DNA of 64,000 nt from assembly GCA_022826195.1 (NCBI GenBank), contig JAJDVI010000091.1:26483-90482 (forward strand), given 5' to 3'. Source of the DNA: Acidobacteriota bacterium. Lineage in GTDB: Bacteria > Acidobacteriota > Vicinamibacteria > Marinacidobacterales > Marinacidobacteraceae. Every line of letters begins with the position of its first letter. Position 1 is the first letter of the stretch. Of this stretch, positions 39,324 through 51,031 are shown in pieces. A model generated the notes under the pieces. It saw only the letters and a program-made list of their open reading frames with translations, had not been told where the DNA came from and made no database searches. Position numbers and translations under genes: made by a program.

Positions 39324-40805
39324 ATGATTGACCGAGGCCGGACGGCCCTGAGTCGAAGAGAGCTCTCACGCCCGGTCCGACTGGCGGTTTCCGACGGCCT
39401 CCTTGCCGGAGGACGGACCTTCCTCGACTACCGCTGCGGCCGCGGAGGAGACGTGCGGCAACTGCTTCGGCTTGGGTTCGACGCGACTGGTTGGGATCCG
39501 GCACACCCTTCTGGCGAAAAGCGCGAGGCGGCCGTGGTCAATCTCGGCTACGTGGTGAATGTCATCGAGGATCCGGCGGAGCGGCTAGCGACGGTCCAGG
39601 ACGCGTGGCGGCTGACCAGGGAGGTTCTAGTCGTGGCCGCCCGGCTGGACACCGACCACCGGGAACTGTCTGGCACTCCCCTCGGGGATGGGGTCCTTAC
39701 CCGGATCGGCACCTTTCAGAAGTACTTCACGCAGGACGAGCTGGTCCGCTGGCTCAGGGACTCCATCGACGAACAGCCGGTGGCAGTCGCCCCCGGAGTG
39801 TTTTACCTCTTCAGGGACACGGCCCGCCGAGAGGCGTTCGCGGCCTCGAGTTTCCGGAGCCGGGTCGCCCCGTTCTCGCTGTCGAAGTCCATCGCGCTTT
39901 ACCGGGAGAACAAGGTGGCCCTCACGGCGCTCGCCGACTTCTTCGACGAGCACGGGAGACTGCCGGCGACAGGAGAGCTCGCGGCAGCGGAAACGCTGGA
40001 GGAGGCGTTCGGTTCGGTGCGGCGAGCGTTCACGTTCCTCCGGACGGCAACTGGCCCCGAGCGGTGGGGTCTCGTCCGCAGAATCCGATCCGCCGACTTG
40101 TTGGTCTATCTGGCGCTGGCCCGTTTGCGGGGCCGTCCGCCGCTGTCGGTCTTGCCGGCAGCGCTCAAGCGCGATATCCGTTCGGTGTTCCCAAGCTATC
40201 GGTTCGCCTGTGCGGCGGCGGACACCCTCCTGTTCCGAGCCGGCAACGCCCAGGCCGTTGAGGCCGCATGCCAGGAGTCCCGGGTGGGGAAGCTGACCCC
40301 CAGCGCGCTCTACGTCCACGAGTCCGCCCTCGCCAGCCTGCCGCCGGTGCTGCGCGTGTACGAAGGGTGCGCCCGGACGCATGTTGGCTCTGTGGAGGGG
40401 GCGAACGTGATCAAGCTCTACCGGCAGCGGTCCCAAGTCTCATATCTGGCGTATCCCGACTTCGACACGGACCCGCACCCGGTGCTCTCCCGGTCGACGA
40501 CAACCCGCCTGGGGTCGCTGGAGATTCACGTGCGGCGCTACGAGCGGTCGACGAATCCACCCATCCTGCACCGGAAGGAACTCTTCGTCCATCCGTCCTA
40601 TGTTCATCACCGGAAGTTCGCTCGCCTGACCTGCCAAGAGGAGGAACACGGTCTATACGAGGGCTCTGCGTCCATCGGACACGCAGAGCAATGGCGCGCC
40701 GCCTTGGCTGAACGAAGACTCGGCTACCTCGGCCACGACCTTGTACCGATCGACTCCATTCGCGCCTCAGACACTGATCCCGTCTCCACGACGACGTGTG
40801 GCTAG
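39324..40805 (+). CDS. DNA phosphorothioation-associated putative methyltransferase
   Basis: RTALSRRELSRPV, FLDY(R)CGRGGD, GWDP, VNLGYVVNVIED, TFQKYFTQ-EL, YPDFD-DPHP and NPPILHRKE. Confidence 0.88.
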   Translation: MIDRGRTALSRRELSRPVRLAVSDGLLAGGRTFLDYRCGRGGDVRQLLRLGFDATGWDPAHPSGEKREAAVVNLGYVVNVIEDPAERLATVQDAWRLTREVLVVAARLDTDHRELSGTPLGDGVLTRIGTFQKYFTQDELVRWLRDSIDEQPVAVAPGVFYLFRDTARREAFAASSFRSRVAPFSLSKSIALYRENKVALTALADFFDEHGRLPATGELAAAETLEEAFGSVRRAFTFLRTATGPERWGLVRRIRSADLLVYLALARLRGRPPLSVLPAALKRDIRSVFPSYRFACAAADTLLFRAGNAQAVEAACQESRVGKLTPSALYVHESALASLPPVLRVYEGCARTHVGSVEGANVIKLYRQRSQVSYLAYPDFDTDPHPVLSRSTTTRLGSLEIHVRRYERSTNPPILHRKELFVHPSYVHHRKFARLTCQEEEHGLYEGSASIGHAEQWRAALAERRLGYLGHDLVPIDSIRASDTDPVSTTTCG

Positions 40806-40944
40806 GCCGTGGCTCCGGATTCCGACTCGAAGCCACGAGACGATGTCTCGCCCGTCCGGCACATCAATCTTCACGGATCACGACGGCCAAGAAGCGGGCT
40901 CCTGAACGCTCTTGGCCCGCCCTCACCCGAATCGCTCCGACGCG

Positions 40945-40974
40945 TTGACCGGTCGCCTCCCGCCCGGCTAGACT
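40945..40974 (+). promoter_or_regulatory. Sigma70-type promoter upstream of the dndA-like operon
   Basis: TTGACC-N18-TAGACT. Confidence 0.55.
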
Positions 40975-41325
40975 CGCCCACATCGGGAAGCACAGGGTGA
41001 AGAGCAGCGCTCTAGCCGTGACACTGGCTTCAGCGGAGCTTTCGTCCTCCTCACCGAAGCTTCCGGCACAACGGATCCGGGGCACAAAATGCGGTTATTC
41101 CGTTCGGCACGTCACGCCGGGCGGCCCATGAGTCGTTCCACCGAGGAGCCCGTGAAATGTTGGTCCTGATGTGCCGCCATGCCCGAGAAAGCGGCCACCC
41201 ATGCACCCGGTCTGACCGGGAGTCGCCATGCATGGGGGCCGCCCAGGCTCGCGGACCATCACGTCGCTGCGCTGGTGCCATCCGGCCTGATCGAGGGCGG
41301 CTCTCGTCCTGATCGGGAAGATCTA

Positions 41326-42534
41326 ATGCAAGAACCCCCATCTGCATCGCGGAGAGGCACTCCAGCAGTAGCAGGCGTCCCCAAGGGCGCGTACCTCGAC
41401 TACGCCGCCACGACACCGGTCGACCCGAGTGTGGCCAAAACCATGAGCCGCTTTCTGACGCGGGGTGGAGTCTTCGGAAACCCCTCCTCCATCACCCACC
41501 GGTTCGGGAACGCCGCTCGGGAAGCCGTCGATCGGGCTCGGGGCCAAGTCGCTGCACTGATCGGCGCAACGCCGGGGGAGATTGTTTGGACCTCCGGCGC
41601 GACGGAGTCCATCAATCTGGCAATCAAGGGAATAATGCTGTCCTCCTCTGTGCCCGGACGGCACCTTGTAGTTACCGCTGTCGAGCACAAAGCCACGCTC
41701 GATGCGGCCGGCTGGCTTGGTTCCTCCGGCTTTGATGTCTCGATCGTGGCCCCGGACCCGGGGGGCCGGATCACTGCGAAACGGATCCAGCGGGCGATCC
41801 GGGAAGACACGGCCCTTGTCTCGCTCATGCATGTAAACAATGAGCTGGGCACGGTGACGGATGTCGGTTCCATCGCCCGCGTCCTTCAGGACGCCGGCGT
41901 TTTGTTCCATGTGGATGCCGCACAGAGCGCGGCTCGGCTTGCCCTGGACGTGTCACGCCTCGGGGTGGATCTCCTCTCGGTCAGCGCTCACAAAATGTAT
42001 GGTCCCAAGGGGATCGGCGCCCTCTTCGTCCGGCGGGGCCTCCAAGCGGCTCTCGTGCCGCAGGTTCATGGAGGGGGGCAAGAGGCAGGCCTACGTCCCG
42101 GCACACTTCCGACCCACCAAATCGCCGGGATGGGCGAAGCGGCAAGTCTCGTCGCTCAGCACCGTGAGGAGGACAGAGCCCGCATCGCAGAATTGGACGA
42201 CTGTCTTCTCCGTCATCTCACCCGGATTCCGGGCAGCGTAGTCAACGGCTCCAGACGCGACCGGATCCCGGGAATCCTCAACGTAGCCTTCGCTGGCGTC
42301 ACGGCGGAGTCCCTGATGGTTGCGCTTGGGGACGTCGCCATCTCGAATGGTTCCGCTTGCACTACGGCGACCCTCGAACCGTCTCACGTGCTGCTCGCAT
42401 TGGGGATGAGTCGAGCAAGAGCGTTCGCGTCGCTACGCTTCAGCATTGGGCGATTCACGACGAGGGCGGAAATCGATCTCGCAGGCGCCCGCGTCCGGGA
42501 AGCGGTGTCTTCGCTCAGGAGCCTCGCGGCATGA
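41326..42534 (+). CDS. dndA: Cysteine desulfurase (DndA/IscS family)
   Basis: YLDYAATTP, GNPSS, SGATES, HVDAAQ, SAHKMYGPKG and SNGSACT; ATGA-coupled to dndC. Confidence 0.85.
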   Translation: MQEPPSASRRGTPAVAGVPKGAYLDYAATTPVDPSVAKTMSRFLTRGGVFGNPSSITHRFGNAAREAVDRARGQVAALIGATPGEIVWTSGATESINLAIKGIMLSSSVPGRHLVVTAVEHKATLDAAGWLGSSGFDVSIVAPDPGGRITAKRIQRAIREDTALVSLMHVNNELGTVTDVGSIARVLQDAGVLFHVDAAQSAARLALDVSRLGVDLLSVSAHKMYGPKGIGALFVRRGLQAALVPQVHGGGQEAGLRPGTLPTHQIAGMGEAASLVAQHREEDRARIAELDDCLLRHLTRIPGSVVNGSRRDRIPGILNVAFAGVTAESLMVALGDVAISNGSACTTATLEPSHVLLALGMSRARAFASLRFSIGRFTTRAEIDLAGARVREAVSSLRSLAA

Positions 42535-43700
42535 GATCGGTGGTTCCGCCTCCCATTCCGAACGGTCTGGTGACACTTCCGCAGCGGCTGATCGGCATCC
42601 GGGAGGTGCTACGGAGGGAATACAGCCGGGAGCACAACCATCCGTGGCTCGTCGCTTACTCCGGCGGGAAGGACTCGACGCTTCTGCTCCAGCTTGTTTG
42701 GGAGATGCTCGCCAAGCTTCCGCCAAGCAACCGGCGTCGCGAGGTCATTGTGGTCGGCAATGACACGCTCGTGGAGTCACCTCTCGTGATCGAACACCTT
42801 CGGGAATCGCTCCAGGTCATCCACGCCGCCGCTCTCGACAACGATCTGCCTTTCGAGGTGCGCATCACCACCCCGGCCATTGACCAGACGTTCTGGGTGA
42901 GCGTCATCGGACGCGGGTACATACCGCCGACCCGGAACTTCCGATGGTGCACCGATCGGATGAAAATCCTTCCCACGACCCGGCTCCTACGGAACATCGT
43001 CCGGCACAGCGGCGGTGCCGTGCTGCTCATTGGGACCAGGCGGGCGGAGTCGCAGCACCGGCGGCGGGGCATGGACAAGCGGAACGTGTCGGCAGCTTCC
43101 GTGAACCAGCACGACTCGGTGCCTGAATGCAAGATGTTCGCGCCTCTCGCCGATCTCGCCGACAACGACGTGTGGATGGTCCTCATGCAGCGGGATCCAC
43201 CCTGGGGCGGCACCCACCGGCGTCTCATTACCCTGTATCGGAATGCCGGTGGCGGAGAGTGTCCGCTAGTGATGTCTCAGGAAGATGCCCCTTCTTGTGG
43301 CAGTTCATCGCCCCGGTTTGGCTGCTGGACCTGCACGGTCGTAAAGAAGGACCGGAGCCTGCAGGGACTGATTGACTCCGGTCGCCACGACACCGGGAGA
43401 ATGGAGGCCTTGTCCGACTTCCGGGAGTGGCTGCTGGAACTGAGGGAAGACAATGCCAACCGGCTGTCGGTGCGCCGGGACGGCAACCCGCGCAACCGTC
43501 CCGACGGTTCCCGCGTCTTCGGTCCGTTTCGGTTGGATGTCCGCCGCCAGATCCTTGACCGGCTCCAGGCGATGGAGCGTGCTTTGGGGGAACCGCTCAT
43601 CACGCCCGCCGAAATCGAGTGTATTGAGGATGTCTGGTGGCGCGACGAGATCCACGAGTCGGGCCGTGCCGCTCTGCGGGAAGCGGTGGCCGTCGGATGA
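42531..43700 (+). CDS. dndC: DNA phosphorothioation sulfurtransferase DndC (PAPS-reductase family, Fe-S)
   Basis: PWLVAYSGGKDST, DTLVESP, IGRGY-PP--FRWCTDRMKI, ECPLV, RFGCWTCTVV and GPF. Confidence 0.9.
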   Translation: MRSVVPPPIPNGLVTLPQRLIGIREVLRREYSREHNHPWLVAYSGGKDSTLLLQLVWEMLAKLPPSNRRREVIVVGNDTLVESPLVIEHLRESLQVIHAAALDNDLPFEVRITTPAIDQTFWVSVIGRGYIPPTRNFRWCTDRMKILPTTRLLRNIVRHSGGAVLLIGTRRAESQHRRRGMDKRNVSAASVNQHDSVPECKMFAPLADLADNDVWMVLMQRDPPWGGTHRRLITLYRNAGGGECPLVMSQEDAPSCGSSSPRFGCWTCTVVKKDRSLQGLIDSGRHDTGRMEALSDFREWLLELREDNANRLSVRRDGNPRNRPDGSRVFGPFRLDVRRQILDRLQAMERALGEPLITPAEIECIEDVWWRDEIHESGRAALREAVAVG

Positions 43701-45460
43701 CGCAGATCCGGTCCAAGGTCCGGCTCGTCTCCAAACTCTTCCTACAGGGACGCTTCGCTGTGCCTTGGCACCAGCGGTACTACGACTGGACGGAGGAACT
43801 AGTCGAAGAATTACTCGTGGATCTGAAGGAAGCTGTGAACGAGGATCGCGCCTCCTACTTCTTGGGGTCGATCATGTTGATCGCGCGCGGAGAGAACGAG
43901 TGGGAGATCAACGACGGACAGCAGCGCCTGATCACGCTCTCGCTGATCTTCGCTGCTCTAGGTCGGCGGTTCGGAGTCTGGGGCAAACCGGAGGCACCGC
44001 GTGAAATTCAGTGTTTGCGGCATTTGTTCGCAGTGGAACAGCACGACCTGCCTGACCCGGCCGATACGACGCGGAATGAACCGCGGATCAGGCCGCCTCG
44101 GAAGGATCGACTCCAGTTCATGCAGATCATCCGGGGCAACGATATCGGGACCAACGGCAAGATGACGGCAGCTTGGAACCGCATTGACCTCTTCGTCAAC
44201 GCGATGAATCGGCCCGACGTTGTGCAGTTCTTTGAGTTTCTGACTCGCAAGGTCGAGATCGCCGTCCTTGATGTGCCTCCGGGCGAGGACGCCAACGCGG
44301 TGTTCGAGGCCCTGAACGGACGAGGAAAGCAGCTCGATGACCTAGACCTGATACGGAACCACCTGTATTCGTATTTCTCGGCGTCAGATGACCACGTCCG
44401 TCGGGGCACGATTCACGATGCCCTCGAACGCGCCGTGATCCGTAATCGAACGAGCCAACGGGCGCAGGAGTACTTCCGATGCTTCCTTCAACGGCGCTAT
44501 GGCTATCTTCAGAAGGCACGTTTCTATCGAGAAACACGTACACGAGTCCGCGCCGAGGCGTCCGGCCCAAACGGTGTGGCGCGTGTGTACGAACTCATCA
44601 ACGCCTTGGCTGACCCAGCTGGGATCGAGCTGTTCCGCACGATGACAGCGACCAATCCTAGCCCTGACCTCGTGTCCGGCTTCCAAAGGGCATCCGGCAC
44701 ATCAGGCCGCAAACGCTCCTTGCCGGATTTTCTATCCGAGCTGCGGACGTACCGCGTGGTCTACCCTCTACTGTTTGCTTTGCTGTACCGATATGTCACG
44801 GCGGGCGACGCTGCGAAGAGAGCCATCGCCCGCGCAGCACATTCTGCGATCCGCGACATGGCATCTTTCGTAATGCGTGTCGCGTTCTCGACTGCCAAAT
44901 TCGAACCATCCCGCTATGAGGCAGCATTCGCCAATCACGCTCGCGAGGTTGCAGACGCCAAGAGCATCGAGAGCATGCGCCTCCGTTCCCTGCTGATGGA
45001 TTGCGATGAGGATGGAGTCATGAACAACGTCCGGTTCCTAGCCAGGATGCAAGGCGTCCAGATGAAGGATGAGCGTCGCGCCAAGCGCTACTTGTTCGCC
45101 ATTAACGCGAACGAACAGGCGGATGCCAGCGCGCTGAGCTTGCAGGGCTGTACCCTCGAACACGTGTTGCCCAAGTCGAAAGAGCACTGGGCCGATTGGA
45201 CCGGCTTTCGGGATATCGGAGTAGACCTGACGGACTGGACCCTCCGACCGGGCAACCTGACGTTGATGGGAAGGGGTGACAATCACCCCGGCAAGCGGTT
45301 TAACTCCAGTTTCGATGCCAAACGCGCCGCGTTCCGTGAGAGTTCGTTCTCAATCACGCGGCGTCTCGCAGAATTGGAGGAGTGGACACCTCAGATGATT
45401 CAGGATCGGTCGACGGAACTCGCCAAGGCAGCCGCGAGGATCTGGTGTTTCTCGAACTAG
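43697..45460 (+). CDS. DUF262-DUF1524 (GmrSD/SspE-like) NTPase-HNH nuclease
   Basis: QRYYDW, DGQQRL, FEALNGRG; C-terminal TLEHVLP...GNLTL...N; ATGA-coupled to dndC. Confidence 0.88.
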   Translation: MTQIRSKVRLVSKLFLQGRFAVPWHQRYYDWTEELVEELLVDLKEAVNEDRASYFLGSIMLIARGENEWEINDGQQRLITLSLIFAALGRRFGVWGKPEAPREIQCLRHLFAVEQHDLPDPADTTRNEPRIRPPRKDRLQFMQIIRGNDIGTNGKMTAAWNRIDLFVNAMNRPDVVQFFEFLTRKVEIAVLDVPPGEDANAVFEALNGRGKQLDDLDLIRNHLYSYFSASDDHVRRGTIHDALERAVIRNRTSQRAQEYFRCFLQRRYGYLQKARFYRETRTRVRAEASGPNGVARVYELINALADPAGIELFRTMTATNPSPDLVSGFQRASGTSGRKRSLPDFLSELRTYRVVYPLLFALLYRYVTAGDAAKRAIARAAHSAIRDMASFVMRVAFSTAKFEPSRYEAAFANHAREVADAKSIESMRLRSLLMDCDEDGVMNNVRFLARMQGVQMKDERRAKRYLFAINANEQADASALSLQGCTLEHVLPKSKEHWADWTGFRDIGVDLTDWTLRPGNLTLMGRGDNHPGKRFNSSFDAKRAAFRESSFSITRRLAELEEWTPQMIQDRSTELAKAAARIWCFSN

Positions 45461-45479
45461 ACGAACCCTTCCGCTCCAA

Positions 45480-46853
45480 GTGAGGCCGATGGACGCGCGC
45501 CGATTGGCCGGTTCGCGGCCTGCACTGCCTGCCCCACTCCACAAGTTTCAACGGGAGGGTATCTCCTTCCTCCTCGAGTCCGAAGGCGCCCTGCTGGCGG
45601 ACGAGATGGGCCTGGGGAAGACAGTGCAGACATCCGTCGCCCTTGATCTGCTCTTGGCGAGGGAGCGAGCAATCGAGCGAGCTCTGATCGTCGCGCCGGC
45701 TTCCCTTGTTCCCAATTGGATGGAAGAACTGGCCCGTTGGGCACCATCGCTGACGGTGAGGCGCGCCGACGGGGGGGCTACGAATCGACAGGCCCTCTAC
45801 ATGCTCCCGGTCCCAGTACTGGTGTGTTCTTACGAGCAGCTGCGTGCTGATGCCCTGGAGCGTATTCCGTCGGGGACCTTCGACATCGTCGTGTTAGACG
45901 AGGCACAGCGCATCAAGAACCCAGACTCCACAACGGCGCTCGCGTGCCGCATCCTCTCTCGAAAGCGGTCATGGGCGCTTTCCGCGACGCCGTTCGAAAA
46001 CAGTGACCGGGATGTCGCGTCGATCCTTGCCTTCGTTGCCCCCAAGCTGGACGTCGAGTCGTCAAGGTCCCATCTCGCGGAGGCCCTGAAAGCAGTGATG
46101 CTTCGCCGCCGGAAGGCCGAAGTCAGACATGAGCTACCGCCGGTAATCACCCAGGACCTCAAGCTAGAGCTGTCCGTCCCGCAGCACCGGGCCTACATCG
46201 CGCTGTGGGCGGAGCAGGAGGAAGCGGCTCGCAACGCCGCTGCGACAGGAGAGGCGGCAGTGCTCCTCGGCCTGATCACGCGCCTGAAGCTGGTGTGCAA
46301 CTTCGATCCCGAAACCGGAGGTTCGTCGAAGCTTGAGGCTCTCCGGGACGTGATCGACAGTGCCGGGCCGGATGCCAGAGTCCTGGTTTTCTCCCAGTTC
46401 GTGAGGACCCTGAAGAGGATCGCCAAGGGCATTGGCGTGGACCACGACTTCCTCGTTGGGTCGATGCGATCAGCGGCACGGCACGGGGCCATCGCGCGCT
46501 TCCAGACCGGTCGAACCCCACGAGTCCTGTTGGCGTCGCTTCGCGCAGCCGGGGTGGGGCTCAACCTCGGTGCGGCATCCCATGTGGTGCTCTTCGACCG
46601 GTGGTGGAACCCTGCCGTGGAGTCCCAAGCCGTATACCATGCCCACCGCTTCGACCGGGCGGCCCCCCTTCATCTGGTGCGATTCTTGGTGGTGGATTCG
46701 GTCGAGGAGCGCATCGCCGCCATCCTCGACGAGAAGGAGGCTCTCCGAGATAGACTTCTGGAGTCTGCCGACGGTTCGAGACGGCGTCCGACGGCGCGTG
46801 AGCTAGCGAGAATTCTGGGCCTCCCGGTTACGGAACCGGGGTTGGATTCCTGA
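45480..46853 (+). CDS. Minimal SNF2-family ATPase
   Basis: LADEMGLGKT, DEAQRIKN, SATPFEN, LRRRK, VFSQF, GVGLNL and DRWWNP; start is 45480 or 45489. Confidence 0.9.
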   Translation: MRPMDARRLAGSRPALPAPLHKFQREGISFLLESEGALLADEMGLGKTVQTSVALDLLLARERAIERALIVAPASLVPNWMEELARWAPSLTVRRADGGATNRQALYMLPVPVLVCSYEQLRADALERIPSGTFDIVVLDEAQRIKNPDSTTALACRILSRKRSWALSATPFENSDRDVASILAFVAPKLDVESSRSHLAEALKAVMLRRRKAEVRHELPPVITQDLKLELSVPQHRAYIALWAEQEEAARNAAATGEAAVLLGLITRLKLVCNFDPETGGSSKLEALRDVIDSAGPDARVLVFSQFVRTLKRIAKGIGVDHDFLVGSMRSAARHGAIARFQTGRTPRVLLASLRAAGVGLNLGAASHVVLFDRWWNPAVESQAVYHAHRFDRAAPLHLVRFLVVDSVEERIAAILDEKEALRDRLLESADGSRRRPTARELARILGLPVTEPGLDS

Positions 46854-46881
46854 CTGAGAACCCAAGAGGAGGTACGGAGTC

Positions 46882-47712
46882 ATGGCGAAAGTCGTTGAAA
46901 CACGGGACATTGCGCTGGATGAGCTGACGATCGGAAAGGGTCAGGTTCGCACTCAGGAGGTTGGTGCCGAAATCGACGAACTCGCGAGAAGCATCGAGGC
47001 TCAGGGCCTTCTTCAGCCTATCGTCGTGTCCGAGGCGATCACACCGGGGAAATTCGAGATCCTGGTTGGCCAGCGCCGTTTCCTCGCGCACAAACTGCTC
47101 GGACGGGCGACGATCACTGCCCGGATTCTCGACACTCGGGTGTCGGAGGCGGAAGCGAAGGCCATCTCCATCACCGAGAATCTCATCCGCCGGAAGCTCT
47201 CCGGCAAGGAGCTCACGGACGGCCTCGGCTACCTCTACAAGATCTACGGCAGCATCAAAGATGTGGCGGCGGCGACTGGCCTGCCGGCGGGGAGGGTAAG
47301 CCCTCACGTGAGGTATCCACGGTTGATTCAGCCGCTCAAGGATCTCGTCGACAGCGGCGACGTTTCGACACCGGTCGCCGTGAAAACCCAGGATGCCGTC
47401 GGTGGGCCGGACGGTACGGCGAACCCGGACGCAGCCGTGACTCTCGCCAGAGAGATGAGTGGCAGGACCGGGGTGCAGCAGAAGATCATGGTGAGAACGG
47501 TCAAGAAGGATCCTCGGCGACCGATCGACGAAGCGATCGAGGAGGCGACCACGGGCCCGAAGATTCACCAGATCTACGTATCCTTGACCGAGGACGCTCT
47601 ATACGCGCTCAAGCAGTTCGCACACGACGAACAGGTCACCCAGGACGCCGCGGCCGCTGATCTCATCCAGGAAGGTCTGATTTCTCGCGGGCTTTTGAAC
47701 GACGACGCCTGA
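46882..47712 (+). CDS. ParB/Srx-domain protein with HTH and C-terminal ribbon-helix-helix-like tail
   Basis: GGAG SD; ELARSI---GLLQPIVV, GQRRF, ENL-R; C-terminal IYVSLTEDALYALKQFA. Confidence 0.85.
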   Translation: MAKVVETRDIALDELTIGKGQVRTQEVGAEIDELARSIEAQGLLQPIVVSEAITPGKFEILVGQRRFLAHKLLGRATITARILDTRVSEAEAKAISITENLIRRKLSGKELTDGLGYLYKIYGSIKDVAAATGLPAGRVSPHVRYPRLIQPLKDLVDSGDVSTPVAVKTQDAVGGPDGTANPDAAVTLAREMSGRTGVQQKIMVRTVKKDPRRPIDEAIEEATTGPKIHQIYVSLTEDALYALKQFAHDEQVTQDAAAADLIQEGLISRGLLNDDA

Positions 47713-48422
47713 TGTTCCCGGGCCTGGACGCGCTCGGCCTAGGGCGGCTCCGAATGTCCGTCGGATACGGTCGTGCCAAAAGACACCGTCCGTTTTCCCC
47801 GGTTGAGGTCGCGGAATACCTAGATAAGGCTCGCCGTGAGGGGTTGTCCGCCAAGGCCAGTGCAGCGTTGATAGGCATCGACGTGACCGGAGTTGGCCGC
47901 TTTCTGCGCCTTCTTGAACTGCCGGAGGAAACACAGCATCTGGTGGACTGGGGGTCGCGCACCGGCTTCATCGCCTTTTCGGCGGCCACCGAAGTCTTGC
48001 GCCTCCCGAGCACGGATGACCGGCGGCTCCTAGCCCATGAGGCGGTCCGCGCGAACCTGAACTCAAAGGAGATTCGCCAGGTTGGCCAGCTCCGGATTCG
48101 ATCTGGTCGCCCGATCCGTGAATGCGTGGACGAAGTGCTGGGGATGCGCCCGACCTACAAAGTGACCTACGTGTTCGTGGGGTCGGTCGGTGACCCGGCG
48201 CTTCAGCAGCGCCTTGCCCAAGTGAGCCAAGCCGAACGGGACGGCATTCTTGAGGACGCGCTTGGCCGAGCGGACCTAGCCGATGTCGGTGGTCGCCTCG
48301 GCAAGCGCTTTTTCACACTCGTCGGCGACGAACGGTTCGGTGAAGCGATGAAGAAACACGGTAAGGGGAGACTGGAATCCACAATGCGTGAGTACATTGA
48401 CCAAGCCGCAGCCCCGGGGTGA
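47712..48422 (+). CDS. Hypothetical protein with ParB-central-like HTH
   Basis: TGATG coupling; FSPVEVA...GLS----AALIG-----VGRFLRLLELP. Confidence 0.65.
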   Translation: MFPGLDALGLGRLRMSVGYGRAKRHRPFSPVEVAEYLDKARREGLSAKASAALIGIDVTGVGRFLRLLELPEETQHLVDWGSRTGFIAFSAATEVLRLPSTDDRRLLAHEAVRANLNSKEIRQVGQLRIRSGRPIRECVDEVLGMRPTYKVTYVFVGSVGDPALQQRLAQVSQAERDGILEDALGRADLADVGGRLGKRFFTLVGDERFGEAMKKHGKGRLESTMREYIDQAAAPG

Positions 48423-49419
48423 CGGGTCCGTCGACGTCCTCGACGGGCGCGTGATCCGCCTCGGTGCCCGAGTCGTTTGCGACGCTTGGGAGTCGGACTG
48501 CCCGTACCGAGTCCAGACCCACATCCATGACGACCACATGGCTGGCTTCGAGACCAGCACAGGGCTCCAGGATCTGATCATGAGCCCGGCGACATTCGAT
48601 CTACTCGTGGCGGAGCGGAACGCTGCACTCCCCTATCGAGACAACATCCATCGCATCCCTTATGGCGAACCGCACGATTTGGATGACGGGTCCACCCTCT
48701 TGCTCCAGAACGCCAATCACATGCTGGGCTCGTCCCAGGTCGCCCTGACGCTGCCAAATGGGGTTCGGGTCGGCTACTCGGGAGACTTCGGCTGGCCCCT
48801 TGACTCCATCATGGAAGTCGACGAACTCGTAGTGGATAGCACATATGGGAGTCCCGAGAGTATTCGACGGTACAGCCAAGGGGACGCGGAATCAGCCCTC
48901 CTGGAGCTGGTGTTCGAACGCCTTCGACATGGACCAGTCCATGTCGTGGCCTTTCGGGGGACCATCGAGCGCGTCGTCCAGGTACTCGCCGAGGTGACGG
49001 AACCCATCATGGCGAGCGAGGGGCTGATCAGGACGCTTTCGGTGTACCGTCAGAATGGACTTGCTCTCCCCGATGTGGAGGACGTTGCCTCCGATGCGGG
49101 AAGGCACGCTGAGGCCCTCGGGCGGTATGTGCGGCTCTACACGAAGGGTGATGCGCTGGGAAACGCCGAGGCTTCGGGAACGAAGATCGTGTGTCGGGCA
49201 TTCTCGCGTGAGCGCCCGGTCGAGACCTTCTCGGATCGGAGTCATCGGGTAGGTCTCTCGAACCACGCTGATTTCGAGGAGACGATGGCATTCATCGAAG
49301 GAACCGGTGCGCGACGCGTGGTGACAGACAACACCCGAGGACACGGCGTTGAACTCGCGTTCGCCATTCGCGAGCGATGGCCCCACGTCAAGGCGGAACC
49401 GCGGCCGTACTCGGCCTGA
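48388..49419 (+). CDS. MBL-fold beta-CASP-type nuclease
   Basis: THIHDDH, ANHMLGS, YSGDF, VDSTYG and SNHADF. Confidence 0.85.
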   Translation: MSTLTKPQPRGDGSVDVLDGRVIRLGARVVCDAWESDCPYRVQTHIHDDHMAGFETSTGLQDLIMSPATFDLLVAERNAALPYRDNIHRIPYGEPHDLDDGSTLLLQNANHMLGSSQVALTLPNGVRVGYSGDFGWPLDSIMEVDELVVDSTYGSPESIRRYSQGDAESALLELVFERLRHGPVHVVAFRGTIERVVQVLAEVTEPIMASEGLIRTLSVYRQNGLALPDVEDVASDAGRHAEALGRYVRLYTKGDALGNAEASGTKIVCRAFSRERPVETFSDRSHRVGLSNHADFEETMAFIEGTGARRVVTDNTRGHGVELAFAIRERWPHVKAEPRPYSA

Positions 49420-49485
49420 CCGCGGCCGTCCGCCTCTCGCGCGCCTCGAGGCTGCCTGCGGCTGTTCCTAGTGACGGCCGGCGGC

Positions 49486-49956
49486 TTAAGGATCGTCCCC
49501 GTCGGACGCCAGGTGGGCGATGAAGTAACCGAGCGAGACGAGTTCGAGCGCGACCCCCGCCCCCAGGAGCAGCTTGGTGGGGGTTTCGAGACCCTTCCGC
49601 TGGCCGTCCTCCTCGTAGCACTTGACGTATTTCGTGTTCTCGGTGGCGTTCTGGCTGAAAGTCGTGCTCACGTTGCGGCAGGGGAGCCAGCGCCAGAGCG
49701 CGGCGCCGGCGAACGCCGCCACTCCGCTGATCGCAAACGCGAGCGCGCTGCGCTTCTTGTCGCCCGGCCGGATCCGGCCGGTGGTGATCGTCGAGGTGTT
49801 CTGGGCGCGATAGACGCCGCTCGCCGCGGCGATCTCGGCAGCCTCCAGGAGCGACGGCGCTCTCCCGGTTCCAGCCGCGGCCGCGGGGAGCGTTCCCGCG
49901 TGGAGGGGTGTCGCGACGAGCCCGTAGCAGACTGCGATGGCGAGGGCCTTCCTCAT
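49486..49956 (-). CDS. Exported/membrane protein, paralog A
   Basis: Signal peptide (TPLHA); two hydrophobic helices around a Cys-bounded loop; paralog of 49965-50459. Confidence 0.75.
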   Translation of the reverse strand: MRKALAIAVCYGLVATPLHAGTLPAAAAGTGRAPSLLEAAEIAAASGVYRAQNTSTITTGRIRPGDKKRSALAFAISGVAAFAGAALWRWLPCRNVSTTFSQNATENTKYVKCYEEDGQRKGLETPTKLLLGAGVALELVSLGYFIAHLASDGDDP

Positions 49957-49964
49957 GGCAGCGC

Positions 49965-50459
49965 CTACGGTGACGAGGCCTGCGCGTCGTCCTGCTGGCG
50001 GTCCTCGCGGAGGTGCCGCACCAGGTAGAAGAGAGACACGAACTCGAGGGCGACGCCGGCCCCAAAGAGGGCCTTGGTCGGCGTGTCCCATCCGAGCCGC
50101 TGTCCGTTGTCGTCGTAGCACTGGGCGTCCTGCCATTGCTGGAAGCCTTCGTACTGGTCCACGAAGCCGTGGGCGTCCTGGCCACGGCAGGGCAGCCACC
50201 GCCAGAGCGCGGCGCCGGCGAACGCCGCCACTCCGCTGATCGCAAACGCGAGCGCGCTCCGCCGGTTGTCGTCCTCCCGGATTGTTCCGGTCGTGATGCC
50301 GGCCAGGTTCTGCGCCCGATAGACGCCGCTCGCCGCGGCGATTTCGGCCACTTCGAGCAGGGAGGGCGCGGCTCCGGAGGCCCGAACCGCCGCCGCGTGA
50401 GCGTGCATCGGGGCAACGGCAATGCCGAACACCAGGAACAGGGATGCGAGTGTCTTCAT
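49965..50459 (-). CDS. Exported/membrane protein, paralog B
   Basis: Signal peptide (PMHA); shares APSLLE-AEIAAASGVYRAQN and RSALAFAISGVAAFAGAALWRWLPCR with paralog A. Confidence 0.78.
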   Translation of the reverse strand: MKTLASLFLVFGIAVAPMHAHAAAVRASGAAPSLLEVAEIAAASGVYRAQNLAGITTGTIREDDNRRSALAFAISGVAAFAGAALWRWLPCRGQDAHGFVDQYEGFQQWQDAQCYDDNGQRLGWDTPTKALFGAGVALEFVSLFYLVRHLREDRQQDDAQASSP

Positions 50460-50497
50460 GCTGAACGTCCTTGGCGGGAAGGGCGGGATCGAGTGGT

Positions 50498-51022
50498 TCA
50501 GTTACGGATGCGGACTACTACATTGCCCGCGATCACGGTTTCGCCGCTTCGCTGGAGCCGGAGCCAGACGCGGTAGGTGCCCGGCAGCGAGAAGCGGTGA
50601 CTGCCGAAGAAGAAGGTCTCGATTTCGGAGCCCTCTTCGTAGGGATCGCAGTCCGGCTCGTACACGGATTCCGTGTCGTCGTCCCAGTCCCAGACCTCTT
50701 CCAGGCAGTAGTAGTCCTCGAGGTTCTCCGCGGTATCCAGGTCTTCGAGACGGGCGCTGACCTCGACATCGAGGGACGGCCGGCGCGTCTCGCCGGGCAT
50801 TCGCGGACGGAGGAACAGCTGCCGGGGCGCCCGCAGCGTCAGCTTCGGCTCGGCGGCGGTTGGGGCCCCCGCTTCAGGCGCCTCCCCGATCACGATGATC
50901 CGGGCGTCCTCTTCCGACGCGGCGCGCTCGGAGCCGCCTCCGAGAAGCGCCGTGGGCGACAACGAAGCGGCCATGAAGCCGGCAACCCCGACAGCGAGGC
51001 CGCGTGCAGCCCGAGTACGCAT
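50498..51022 (-). CDS. Secreted PKD-like domain protein
   Basis: Signal-like N-terminus; WDWDD...H-F--PGTY-V-L PKD-like pattern. Confidence 0.6.
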   Translation of the reverse strand: MRTRAARGLAVGVAGFMAASLSPTALLGGGSERAASEEDARIIVIGEAPEAGAPTAAEPKLTLRAPRQLFLRPRMPGETRRPSLDVEVSARLEDLDTAENLEDYYCLEEVWDWDDDTESVYEPDCDPYEEGSEIETFFFGSHRFSLPGTYRVWLRLQRSGETVIAGNVVVRIRN

Positions 51023-51031
51023 CCGGGCATT

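Follow-up and report, generated by a model that had tools for sequence, protein, structure and literature searches.

Phosphorothioate (PT) is, to our knowledge, the only natural modification known for the DNA backbone, and both the choice of its sites and the set of proteins truly needed for writing it are questions touched by a locus from an Acidobacteriota bacterium. The locus lies in the 64,000-nucleotide stretch analysed here, hereafter the window (assembly GCA_022826195.1, contig JAJDVI010000091.1, positions 26,483 to 90,482 of the forward strand), in which eight open reading frames (ORFs), all on the + strand, occupy positions 39324-49419. They encode a protein of family TIGR04096, a cysteine desulfurase of DndA type, a short DndC, a DUF262-DUF1524 nuclease, and four further proteins that we call the cassette: an SNF2-family translocase, a ParB-family protein, a helix-turn-helix (HTH) protein and a metallo-beta-lactamase (MBL)-fold nuclease. 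What could a DndC do here with neither DndD nor DndE beside it, and what would the cassette add? The answer that we favour, with somewhat more confidence than doubt, is that these genes form a horizontally acquired restriction-modification island of PT type, composed of two separable units and one loosely linked gene and working by the mechanism set out below.

An earlier, sequence-only reading of this DNA had reported a sulfur donor together with a clear DndC, and both assignments are borne out by profile searches. The DndC gene (42531..43700, + strand) encodes a 389-aa PP-loop ATP pyrophosphatase/sulfurtransferase that scores above the cut-off of its family (TIGR03183, 328.7 bits against 290.4), and in PADLOC it is matched by the DndC model far better than by the SspD model (1.8e-107 vs 2e-06). 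The TIGR03183 match spans only positions 10-333 of the 447 in the profile, and its alignment with a canonical DndC of 493 aa (39% identity) covers residues 22-384 of the latter, the C-terminal ~100 aa of the canonical form being absent. This extra C-terminus bears the Pfam Sp-DndD region, and in E. coli B7A, according to PMC12193691, the docking site for DndD comprises residues 433-482 of DndC together with its last helix; judged by alignment, the segment missing here would correspond to this DndD-docking region. The SGGKDS motif (residues 44-49) and six cysteines (C140, C200, C244, C256, C265 and C268) are shared without exception by the 26 sequences compared, which come from many phyla, and the window's DndC deviates from its family at 2 of 161 conserved columns.

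The adjacent desulfurase gene (41179..42534, + strand) encodes a pyridoxal phosphate enzyme of DndA/SspA type, the presumptive sulfur donor (Pfam Aminotran_5, 1.2e-80), which is matched by the PADLOC models for SspA (7.5e-146) and DndA (1.9e-142). In NCBIfam it lies below the equivalog cut-offs (TIGR03235, 397 bits against 480), and IscS models score higher. Because homology begins at residue 71-72, with none over the first ~70 residues of the ORF (41179-41389), the true start is probably the in-frame ATG at 41326, which would yield a protein of ~402 aa, in line with homologues of 390-420 aa. In the conservation comparison the DndA, the nuclease and the HTH protein of the window are all typical members of their families.

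Whole-genome profile searches supplied none of the usual partners of this pair. The organism's own genome (3.85 Mb in 107 contigs, 92.95% complete) holds a single DndC and gave no match to DndD (TIGR03185), DndE (TIGR03184, PF08870), DndB or DUF499/SspC-BrxC (PF04465); DUF4007/SspB (PF13182) likewise found no match there, in what is a weak test, as the PF13182 control matched nowhere. The sequence-only reading had described the island as lacking DndB, DndD, DndE, SspB and SspC and had asked for exactly such a search, and its description stands at the level of the genome. Among five genomes that carry the full island, four have no DndD above cut-off, and DndE is absent from all four of these, the positive-control genome (G006) giving 2 matches.

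We found that the DndA-DndC-nuclease triad recurs as a unit well beyond this organism. A DndC scan over one genome per species yielded 80 loci, which were compared by tblastn, ORF clustering and annotation of representatives. The closest set comprises 33 loci with 55-74% identity in DndC (L002-L034): a DUF262-DUF1524 gene directly follows DndC in 30 of them, DndA is present in 23, and within 10 kb on either side neither a DndD-cluster gene (0/33) nor a DndE (0/33) was detected. Judged by their record titles, these loci come from at least nine phyla, with representatives of Alpha- and Gammaproteobacteria, Acidobacteriota, Gemmatimonadota, Thermodesulfobacteriota, Latescibacterota, Chloroflexota, Nitrospirota, Nitrospinota and Binatota, and several candidate-taxon names, among them Spongiihabitans, Poriferihabitaceae and Porisulfidus, would on our reading point to an association with sponges.

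The recurrence is mirrored in the phylogeny. In a quick IQ-TREE reconstruction of 94 DndC rows, from which DndC ORFs shorter than 330 aa were left out, the DndD-less, nuclease-linked DndCs form a single clade of 30 rows (28 so labelled and 2 others; SH-aLRT 99), nested among short, DndD-linked DndCs. The window's DndC is not itself a row of this tree and is placed through its 74% identity to a clade member (L002); alignment A2 left out L008 and L009, whose ORFs are over-long, together with a few others. DndA, short DndC and nuclease are a conserved unit, and what stays constant beside the DndCs of this clade is the DUF262-DUF1524 protein. The more distant DndCs of the scan (43-52% identity) are also short (~370-400 aa) and belong to a second architecture (L035-L081, for example L041:426-5405 and L074:10001-14903), in which DndC is followed by DndD and then by a DndE domain joined to an ATPase of HerA type (c3) or FtsK type (c11). 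It often ends with a small protein and a DndB- or DpdB-like protein, and its cultured hosts include Paracoccus, Rhizobium, Kingella, Caballeronia and Paraburkholderia.

The partner itself (43697..45460, + strand, 587 aa; Pfam GmrSD_N 1.3e-25, GmrSD_C 3.5e-16) joins a ParB/Srx-fold NTPase domain to a His-Me/HNH nickase domain. It had been called SspE-like from its sequence, a label that does not survive comparison with solved structures and system models, which bring it nearer to DndI/Orf5 and HEC-06. Its best PADLOC match is the single-gene candidate HEC-06 (5.1e-67), followed by Orf5 (2.1e-49), while SspE (1.7e-12) is matched over just ~70 N-terminal residues. A search of the PDB with a profile of the clade found DndI (9JFL) at 2.6e-28 across both domains, against 1.3e-16 for SspE, and with the single sequence 9JFL was the sole relative (E 8.6e-9, N-terminal half only). 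This structure is DndI of Salmonella enterica Cerro 87, which is ORF5 of the dpt cluster (PMC11662687, PMC2978375) and explains the Orf5 matches of the nuclease. DndI is described, in the portion of PMC11662687 at hand, as a PT-sensing NTPase and nickase that restricts PT-free DNA and harms cells without PT. In our set of 23 sequences the DGQQR motif (73-77) and residues E488, H489, P492, N520 and N536 (EHxxP...N...N) are invariant, and the window's nuclease deviates from its family at 3 of 120 conserved columns.

Structure prediction points to a direct contact between the two proteins. Three runs gave the DndC-nuclease pair ipSAE values of 0.74, 0.75 and 0.74, whereas none of 3 controls exceeded 0.00; at least 96% of contacts were shared between runs, and the predicted local distance difference test score (pLDDT) of the partner was at least 83. 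In the predicted interface the C-terminal helix of DndC (359-389) packs against the helical region between the two nuclease domains. A PDB sequence search with the window's DndC found no relative, and recall of a solved complex is unlikely for this reason. The two proteins also occur as a natural fusion, DndC::DUF262-nuclease (P0125). Two other natural DndC fusions (P0121 and P0124) are a DndA::DndC protein (1043 aa, Aminotran_5 + PAPS_reduct) and a 703-aa DndC relative with a precomputed DndB-family (PF14072) domain.

Downstream of the triad, the four cassette proteins comprise one predicted motor, two members of the ParB family and a second candidate nuclease. The first is a short SNF2-family translocase (45480..46853, + strand, 457 aa) consisting of the helicase core only (Pfam SNF2-rel_dom 5e-43, Helicase_C 1.8e-16); it keeps the GLGKT and DEAQ motifs and in PADLOC matches the C-terminal halves of DpdE and ZorD, with DpdE best (5.7e-60). 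The ParB-family protein (46882..47712, + strand, 276 aa; Pfam ParB_N 3e-15) has an N-terminal CTPase-type domain and an HTH, and exceeds the cut-off of TIGR00180 (72.2 bits against 58.45) over profile positions 6-166 of 186. Residues G63 Q64 R65 R66 (GxRR, box II) and E99 N100 R103 (ENLxR) are invariant in 31 sequences, and we take these two motifs to be those that bind CTP. The third protein (47712..48422, + strand, 236 aa; Pfam HTH_ParB 7.6e-07) is a ParB-type HTH protein without the N-terminal NTPase domain. In its AlphaFold model (pLDDT 94.1), ~105-110 residues superpose on the DNA-binding domains of Noc/ParB (root-mean-square deviation 2.2-2.8 A, Foldseek E ~2e-3) and the C-terminal alpha/beta domain has no match. 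At E<=1e-30 the family numbers 342 representatives in a collection of 1.84 billion proteins, and a search of 50,697 phage records with the HTH protein gave no match.

The last cassette gene (48388..49419, + strand, 343 aa) encodes a putative MBL-fold, beta-CASP-like nuclease. Its Pfam match to Lactamase_B_2 (5e-05, 23.4 bits) is below the cut-off of 27, and those to TIGR04122 (1.7e-15) and aCPSF1 (4.6e-07) are each far under theirs; residues H45 H47 D49 H50 (HxHxDH), H111, D133 and H293 are invariant in 11 sequences. At E<=1e-10 the family comprises 1138 clusters, with names on just four of the best 120 ('hypothetical protein' or 'putative mRNA 3-end processing factor'), and 72,556 plasmid records yielded one weak match (27.8% identity). 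A natural HTH::MBL fusion (P0137) is among the 342 HTH-family representatives. No PADLOC model matches the ParB, HTH or MBL proteins, and none of the four cassette proteins is matched by a DndF/G/H, Pbe or SspF/G/H model.

A metagenome scan with an MBL alignment yielded 56 loci, 26 of which hold SNF2, ParB, HTH and MBL genes in that order. Twenty of these 26 complete cassettes also have DndC, DndD or DndE, and 17 have DndD, mostly with DndB, DndE, a full-length DndC and DndA, where DndB is matched by PF14072 (2.3e-135) and DndE by PF08870 (1.1e-21). For 5 of the 6 cassettes without dnd genes, the flanking sequence amounts to ~1 kb or less on each side. The arrangement of the window was seen in only two metagenome loci (L084 and L114), and cassettes were found with three types of DndC. 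They lie either between DndE and DndA (L083, L087, L107 and L129) or upstream of DndB, in the latter case sometimes followed by a HARE-HTH+Mrr nuclease.

In L102 (4952-6375) and its homologues (L098, L101, L104 and L105), an ORF of 87-92 aa and a restriction-endonuclease-like HARE-HTH+Mrr_cat gene stand between cassette and dndB, and in L097, L102 and L104 a convergent DUF262-DUF1524 gene comes after dndA.

The triad, in turn, is not bound to the cassette. All four cassette genes lie downstream of it in 10 of the 33 closest loci, and about two thirds of triad loci have no cassette. In 18 of the 33 the downstream gene encodes instead a ~425-aa DGQHR protein resembling DndB, preceded in 13 loci by a gene for a ~115-aa GIY-YIG protein, an alternative accessory pair seen for example at L005:12891-14560; cassette and DndB-like gene largely alternate, and only 2 of the 33 loci (L003 and L021) hold both. 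The cassette is a separate mobile, Dnd-associated unit that resides mostly beside complete DndBCDE operons, and is an accessory module whose probable role is that of a restriction effector.

These findings are combined in the reading that we favour. In the first unit (41179-45460), DndA would mobilise sulfur from cysteine, and the short DndC, with its PP-loop and conserved Fe-S cysteines, would activate the backbone phosphate and move the sulfur onto DNA. The DndI-like protein would bind the C-terminal helix of DndC and take the place of DndD and DndE, probably supplying the NTPase, nicking and DNA-scanning functions; as a PT-reading nickase it would spare PT-marked self DNA and nick unmarked foreign DNA, as for Salmonella DndI. 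The second unit (45480-49419) would most likely be a second PT-dependent effector, in which the ParB pair binds or clamps DNA, the SNF2 protein translocates and the MBL nuclease cuts. Writing of this kind has a precedent, as tdpC alone is described as sufficient for PT synthesis in PMC12914056. A stronger version, which we offer tentatively and judge less likely than not, is that DndC and the DndI-like protein make up a self-contained two-protein writer, reader and nickase that dispenses with DndD/DndE or SspB/SspC. A ParB/Srx-fold NTPase-HNH protein would then have moved into the C-terminal docking position on DndC, and the view of DndD-DndE as the obligate core would be overturned. The cassette, independently, would represent a new type of restriction machinery dependent on PT, its translocase and MBL nuclease being guided by a ParB-type clamp gated by nucleotide. 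Both units would be passing horizontally among uncultured bacteria of very diverse lineages, many of which seem to be associated with sponges.

Several points weigh against the favoured reading. Phosphorothioation in this organism is predicted from its genes, and the available portions of two papers hold DndD/E or SspBC to be necessary for PT installation (PMC12707154, PMC10853773); in one of these, Rakesh et al. 2024, the module is described as non-functional without DndD/E, the 'obligate core' (PMC10853773). The absences reported above rest on a genome that is 93% complete, and one of the five sister genomes (G001, the genome of L007) has a DndD ~45 kb from the island. Tyr25, the PT-sensing residue in the N-terminal hydrophobic patch of DndI, aligns in the nuclease clade to His25, which is at least 90% conserved there and adjoined by Trp24 (HMMER alignment). 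The DndC-nuclease complex is a model built from alignments of our own making, such that the calibration of the ipSAE mark, which 58 of 80 solved complexes attain as against 2 of 110 mismatched pairs, holds only roughly, and the DndC-nuclease fusion is one protein from one contig. As to the cassette, one complete example (L109) has 6.2 kb of upstream sequence without a dnd gene (0.3 kb downstream), and two loci (L117 and L120) hold lone MBL homologues in another context; the metagenome counts, beginning with the 56 loci, are effectively lower because L101 and L116, as well as L131 and L132, are duplicates. In the window, finally, the SNF2 protein has His387 in the place of the first motif VI arginine, which is present in at least 90% of 36 homologues, and the cassette proteins are among the more divergent of their families (MBL rank 42/48, SNF2 30/36, ParB 30/37), for which reasons the cassette may be impaired or weakened in this genome.

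Three side observations belong to these subjects. The DndD of G001 is canonical (487.8 bits; contig 1, 537459-539333), and two PT-type systems may coexist in that genome. In L117 and L120 (10001-10861 in each) the MBL homologue is a 397-aa protein with 48% identity over residues 49-330, set in a conserved, unrelated neighbourhood without SNF2, ParB, HTH or dnd genes. Besides the change in motif VI, the window's SNF2 has Ala357 in place of a conserved Gly.

Some of these objections speak for an alternative, unlikely in our judgement, in which the triad writes no PT at all: DndC would be inactive or vestigial, the DUF262-DUF1524 protein a GmrSD-like Type IV enzyme directed against modified phage DNA, and the cassette an unrelated neighbouring defence. 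It would agree with the description of DndD/E as an obligate core in the part of PMC10853773 consulted, with the single-gene candidate HEC-06 as the best PADLOC match of the nuclease, with the non-conservation of the PT-sensing Tyr, and with the clustering of defence genes in islands even without a joint function. A vestigial DndC is difficult to reconcile, however, with a PP-loop and a full set of cysteines kept in 26 sequences from many phyla, or with a DndA retained in 23 of 33 loci; and a stand-alone nuclease would not account for the ATGA overlap that couples it to DndC, for the predicted complex and the natural fusion, or for a monophyletic clade in which the partner is constant.

A further alternative, which we regard as improbable, concerns the cassette alone. 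In this case it would not be a restriction effector but would serve regulation, or the repair and upkeep of PT DNA (dealing with nicks, with oxidised PT sites or, as DndB does, with PT density). Among NCBIfam families the MBL protein comes closest to a 'ligase-associated DNA damage response exonuclease', several loci carry the cassette inside the modification operon, in the DndE-DndA interval, and its alternation with the DndB-like gene in the triad clade would also fit such a role. Against this, other restriction-like nucleases (HARE-HTH+Mrr, DUF262-DUF1524) adjoin the cassette, and its combination of translocase, nuclease and DNA binders resembles DndFGH and TdpAB in kind. The present observations fit either reading.

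The fold of DndC raises a third alternative, namely that the sulfur mark made by DndA and DndC with the nuclease is not backbone PT, or that their substrate is RNA or a nucleobase. Foldseek places the DndC model (pLDDT 70) nearest to the [4Fe-4S] tRNA thiolases TtuA and NcsA among solved folds, and the usual DNA-scanning partners are absent. We consider this very unlikely: DndC is over its equivalog cut-off and nests among DndD-linked DndCs, its partner belongs to a family of DNA nickases whose characterised members, DndI and SspE, read PT according to the sources available to us, and the clade is accompanied by TIGR04096 and DndB-like genes, which are typical dnd companions.

The least probable alternative is the one that the sequence-only reading had proposed, a single eight-gene system in which the SNF2 protein and the ParB-like pair stand in for DndD, DndE and DndB in modification while the DUF262-HNH and MBL proteins serve as effectors: the genes of 41179-49419 are indeed co-oriented and tightly spaced, ParB-superfamily proteins (DndB, DpdB) do act in DNA-modification systems as related in the available text of PMC10853773 and PMC12839542, and the full order from DndC through nuclease, SNF2, ParB and HTH to MBL, whose recurrence that reading had wished to see checked, is found in the window, in 10 of the 33 closest genome loci and in a further 2 from metagenomes, but 17 of 26 complete cassettes sit beside a DndD, usually with DndB, DndE and a full-length DndC, the triad mostly goes without a cassette and often has the DGQHR DndB-like gene in its stead, and the predicted partner of DndC is the nuclease. 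The gene set as a whole recurs and splits into triad and cassette. Because the cassette travels with dnd modification modules of three or more kinds, it is not a replacement for DndD/E.

If the favoured reading is true, the triad would offer a tractable three-gene minimal system for asking what DndC itself does, and it would put to the test the published claim that DndD/E are indispensable. The cassette would be a candidate fifth kind of PT-linked effector and would point to a possible role of ParB-type clamps in defence. Current annotation pipelines would miss both units because these are absent from the PADLOC models scanned.

The remaining gene of the island (39324..40805, + strand, 493 aa) had been left unnamed in the sequence-only reading and is now assigned to a family: it matches TIGR04096, 'DNA phosphorothioation-associated putative methyltransferase', at 538.1 bits (NCBIfam cut-off 150), and its atlas neighbours share the name with a score of 0.99. 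Homologues occur in 15 dnd loci, with all three DndC types and in variable position and strand, and the gene is only loosely linked to the island. In the window 374 nt separate it from the DndA ORF.

The other junctions are tight, and both they and the existence of the ORFs can be read straight from the sequence. The DndA stop and DndC start overlap in an ATGA (42531-42534), as do DndC and the nuclease (43697-43700); the ParB (46882) and HTH (47712) genes overlap in a TGATG (47710-47714), and the MBL gene starts with a GTG at 48388, inside the preceding HTH gene (stop 48420-48422). A 19-nt gap precedes the SNF2 start at 45480, and a 28-nt gap containing AGGAGG precedes the ParB ATG at 46882. 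The eight co-oriented genes with coupled junctions that the sequence-only reading had described are thus confirmed by coordinates and junction sequences, and so is its lower-GC island, with a GC fraction of 0.59-0.64 over 41-49 kb against 0.67-0.74 in the flanks.

Upstream, the flank is of housekeeping character (a sulfatase, a DUF255 thioredoxin-like protein and FabH), and downstream lie the beta, gamma and alpha genes of an F-type ATP synthase on the opposite strand. About 1.6 kb (49420-51030) separate the end of the island from the ATP synthase operon, and the ORFs scanned there have no Pfam match. A tRNA search of the window found none, and no integrase was matched among the flank ORFs scanned, a set that leaves out some small ORFs in 49.4-51.0 kb. 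Scans of the sequence for promoters and terminators stayed at chance level, with 1 promoter-like site where 1.5 were expected and 5 terminator-like sites where 6.6 were expected.

Taken as a whole, the island appears to be a form of anti-phage defence by sulfur modification that has not been described before. The sequence-only reading could match its composition to no named system, and a PADLOC run agrees, with no matching system at the level of hidden Markov models (HMMs). Our literature searches, which reached main texts, found no detailed account of a DndC-DUF262/DUF1524 system without DndD/E and nothing on an SNF2-ParB-HTH-MBL cassette beside dnd genes; dndC next to DUF262 appears there only in passing mentions, and the supplements of PMC10853773 and PMC12914056 may list such neighbourhoods. 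One such mention, in the part of PMC6790972 that we could consult, is of dndA/dndC and 'dndB-like' DUF262/DUF1524 genes in sponge Thaumarchaeota.

Among known systems, the IscS-DndBCDE-DndI system of Salmonella shares with the island a desulfurase and a DndC as writer and a ~590-aa DUF262 (DGQQR) + DUF1524 protein as reader and effector. Salmonella DndI works with DndBCDE, however, and is co-transcribed with dndFGH, whereas the island has no DndB, DndD or DndE and its DndC has no DndD-docking C-terminus; the window's nuclease also differs from DndI, to which its similarity is remote, in being translationally coupled to DndC, in its predicted binding to DndC and in having His for Tyr25. SspABCD-SspE likewise unites a desulfurase and a PAPS-reductase-like sulfurtransferase with a PT-sensing nickase of DUF262-DUF1524 type, but neither SspB (DUF4007) nor SspC (DUF499) was found in the genome studied here, and its sulfurtransferase scores as a DndC and not as an SspD.

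The effector of the Tdp system is said, in work attributed to An et al. from 2025, to consist of a translocase and a nuclease, and the system has reportedly been found in extremophiles. In contrast, the triad loci come from metagenome-assembled genomes of mesophile type. TdpABC resembles the triad in writing PT without DndD/E or SspBC, as described in PMC12914056, a likeness by description. DndFGH, PbeABCD and SspFGH are, as is the cassette, optional multi-gene modules beside dnd modification genes that bring together an ATP-driven motor, DNA binders and a nuclease; the cassette has no component homologous to theirs at the HMM level, its motor being of SNF2 type, its DNA binders of the ParB family and its nuclease of MBL fold. 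The Dpd 7-deazaguanine system is also a modification-based defence with a ParB-superfamily protein (DpdB) and an SNF2 helicase (DpdE), but the window's SNF2 protein matches the helicase core of DpdE only, DpdA and DpdC are absent, and the cassette ParB is of classical ParB/Noc type, with no PADLOC match to DpdB.

Two comparisons concern single components. Like the CTP-dependent clamps ParB and Noc, the protein encoded at 46882 has GxRR and ENLxR motifs and an HTH, and that encoded at 47712 superposes on their DNA-binding domain; unlike them, the two are split into paralogous proteins without a ParA partner, in a defence operon with a motor and a nuclease, and their CTP binding is predicted only. 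The stand-alone GmrSD Type IV enzymes, which cleave DNA carrying hydroxymethylcytosine (hmC) or glucosyl-hmC, fit the domain architecture of the DndI-like protein, but the gene does not stand alone: in the window, as in 30 of the 33 closest loci, it is translationally coupled to DndC.

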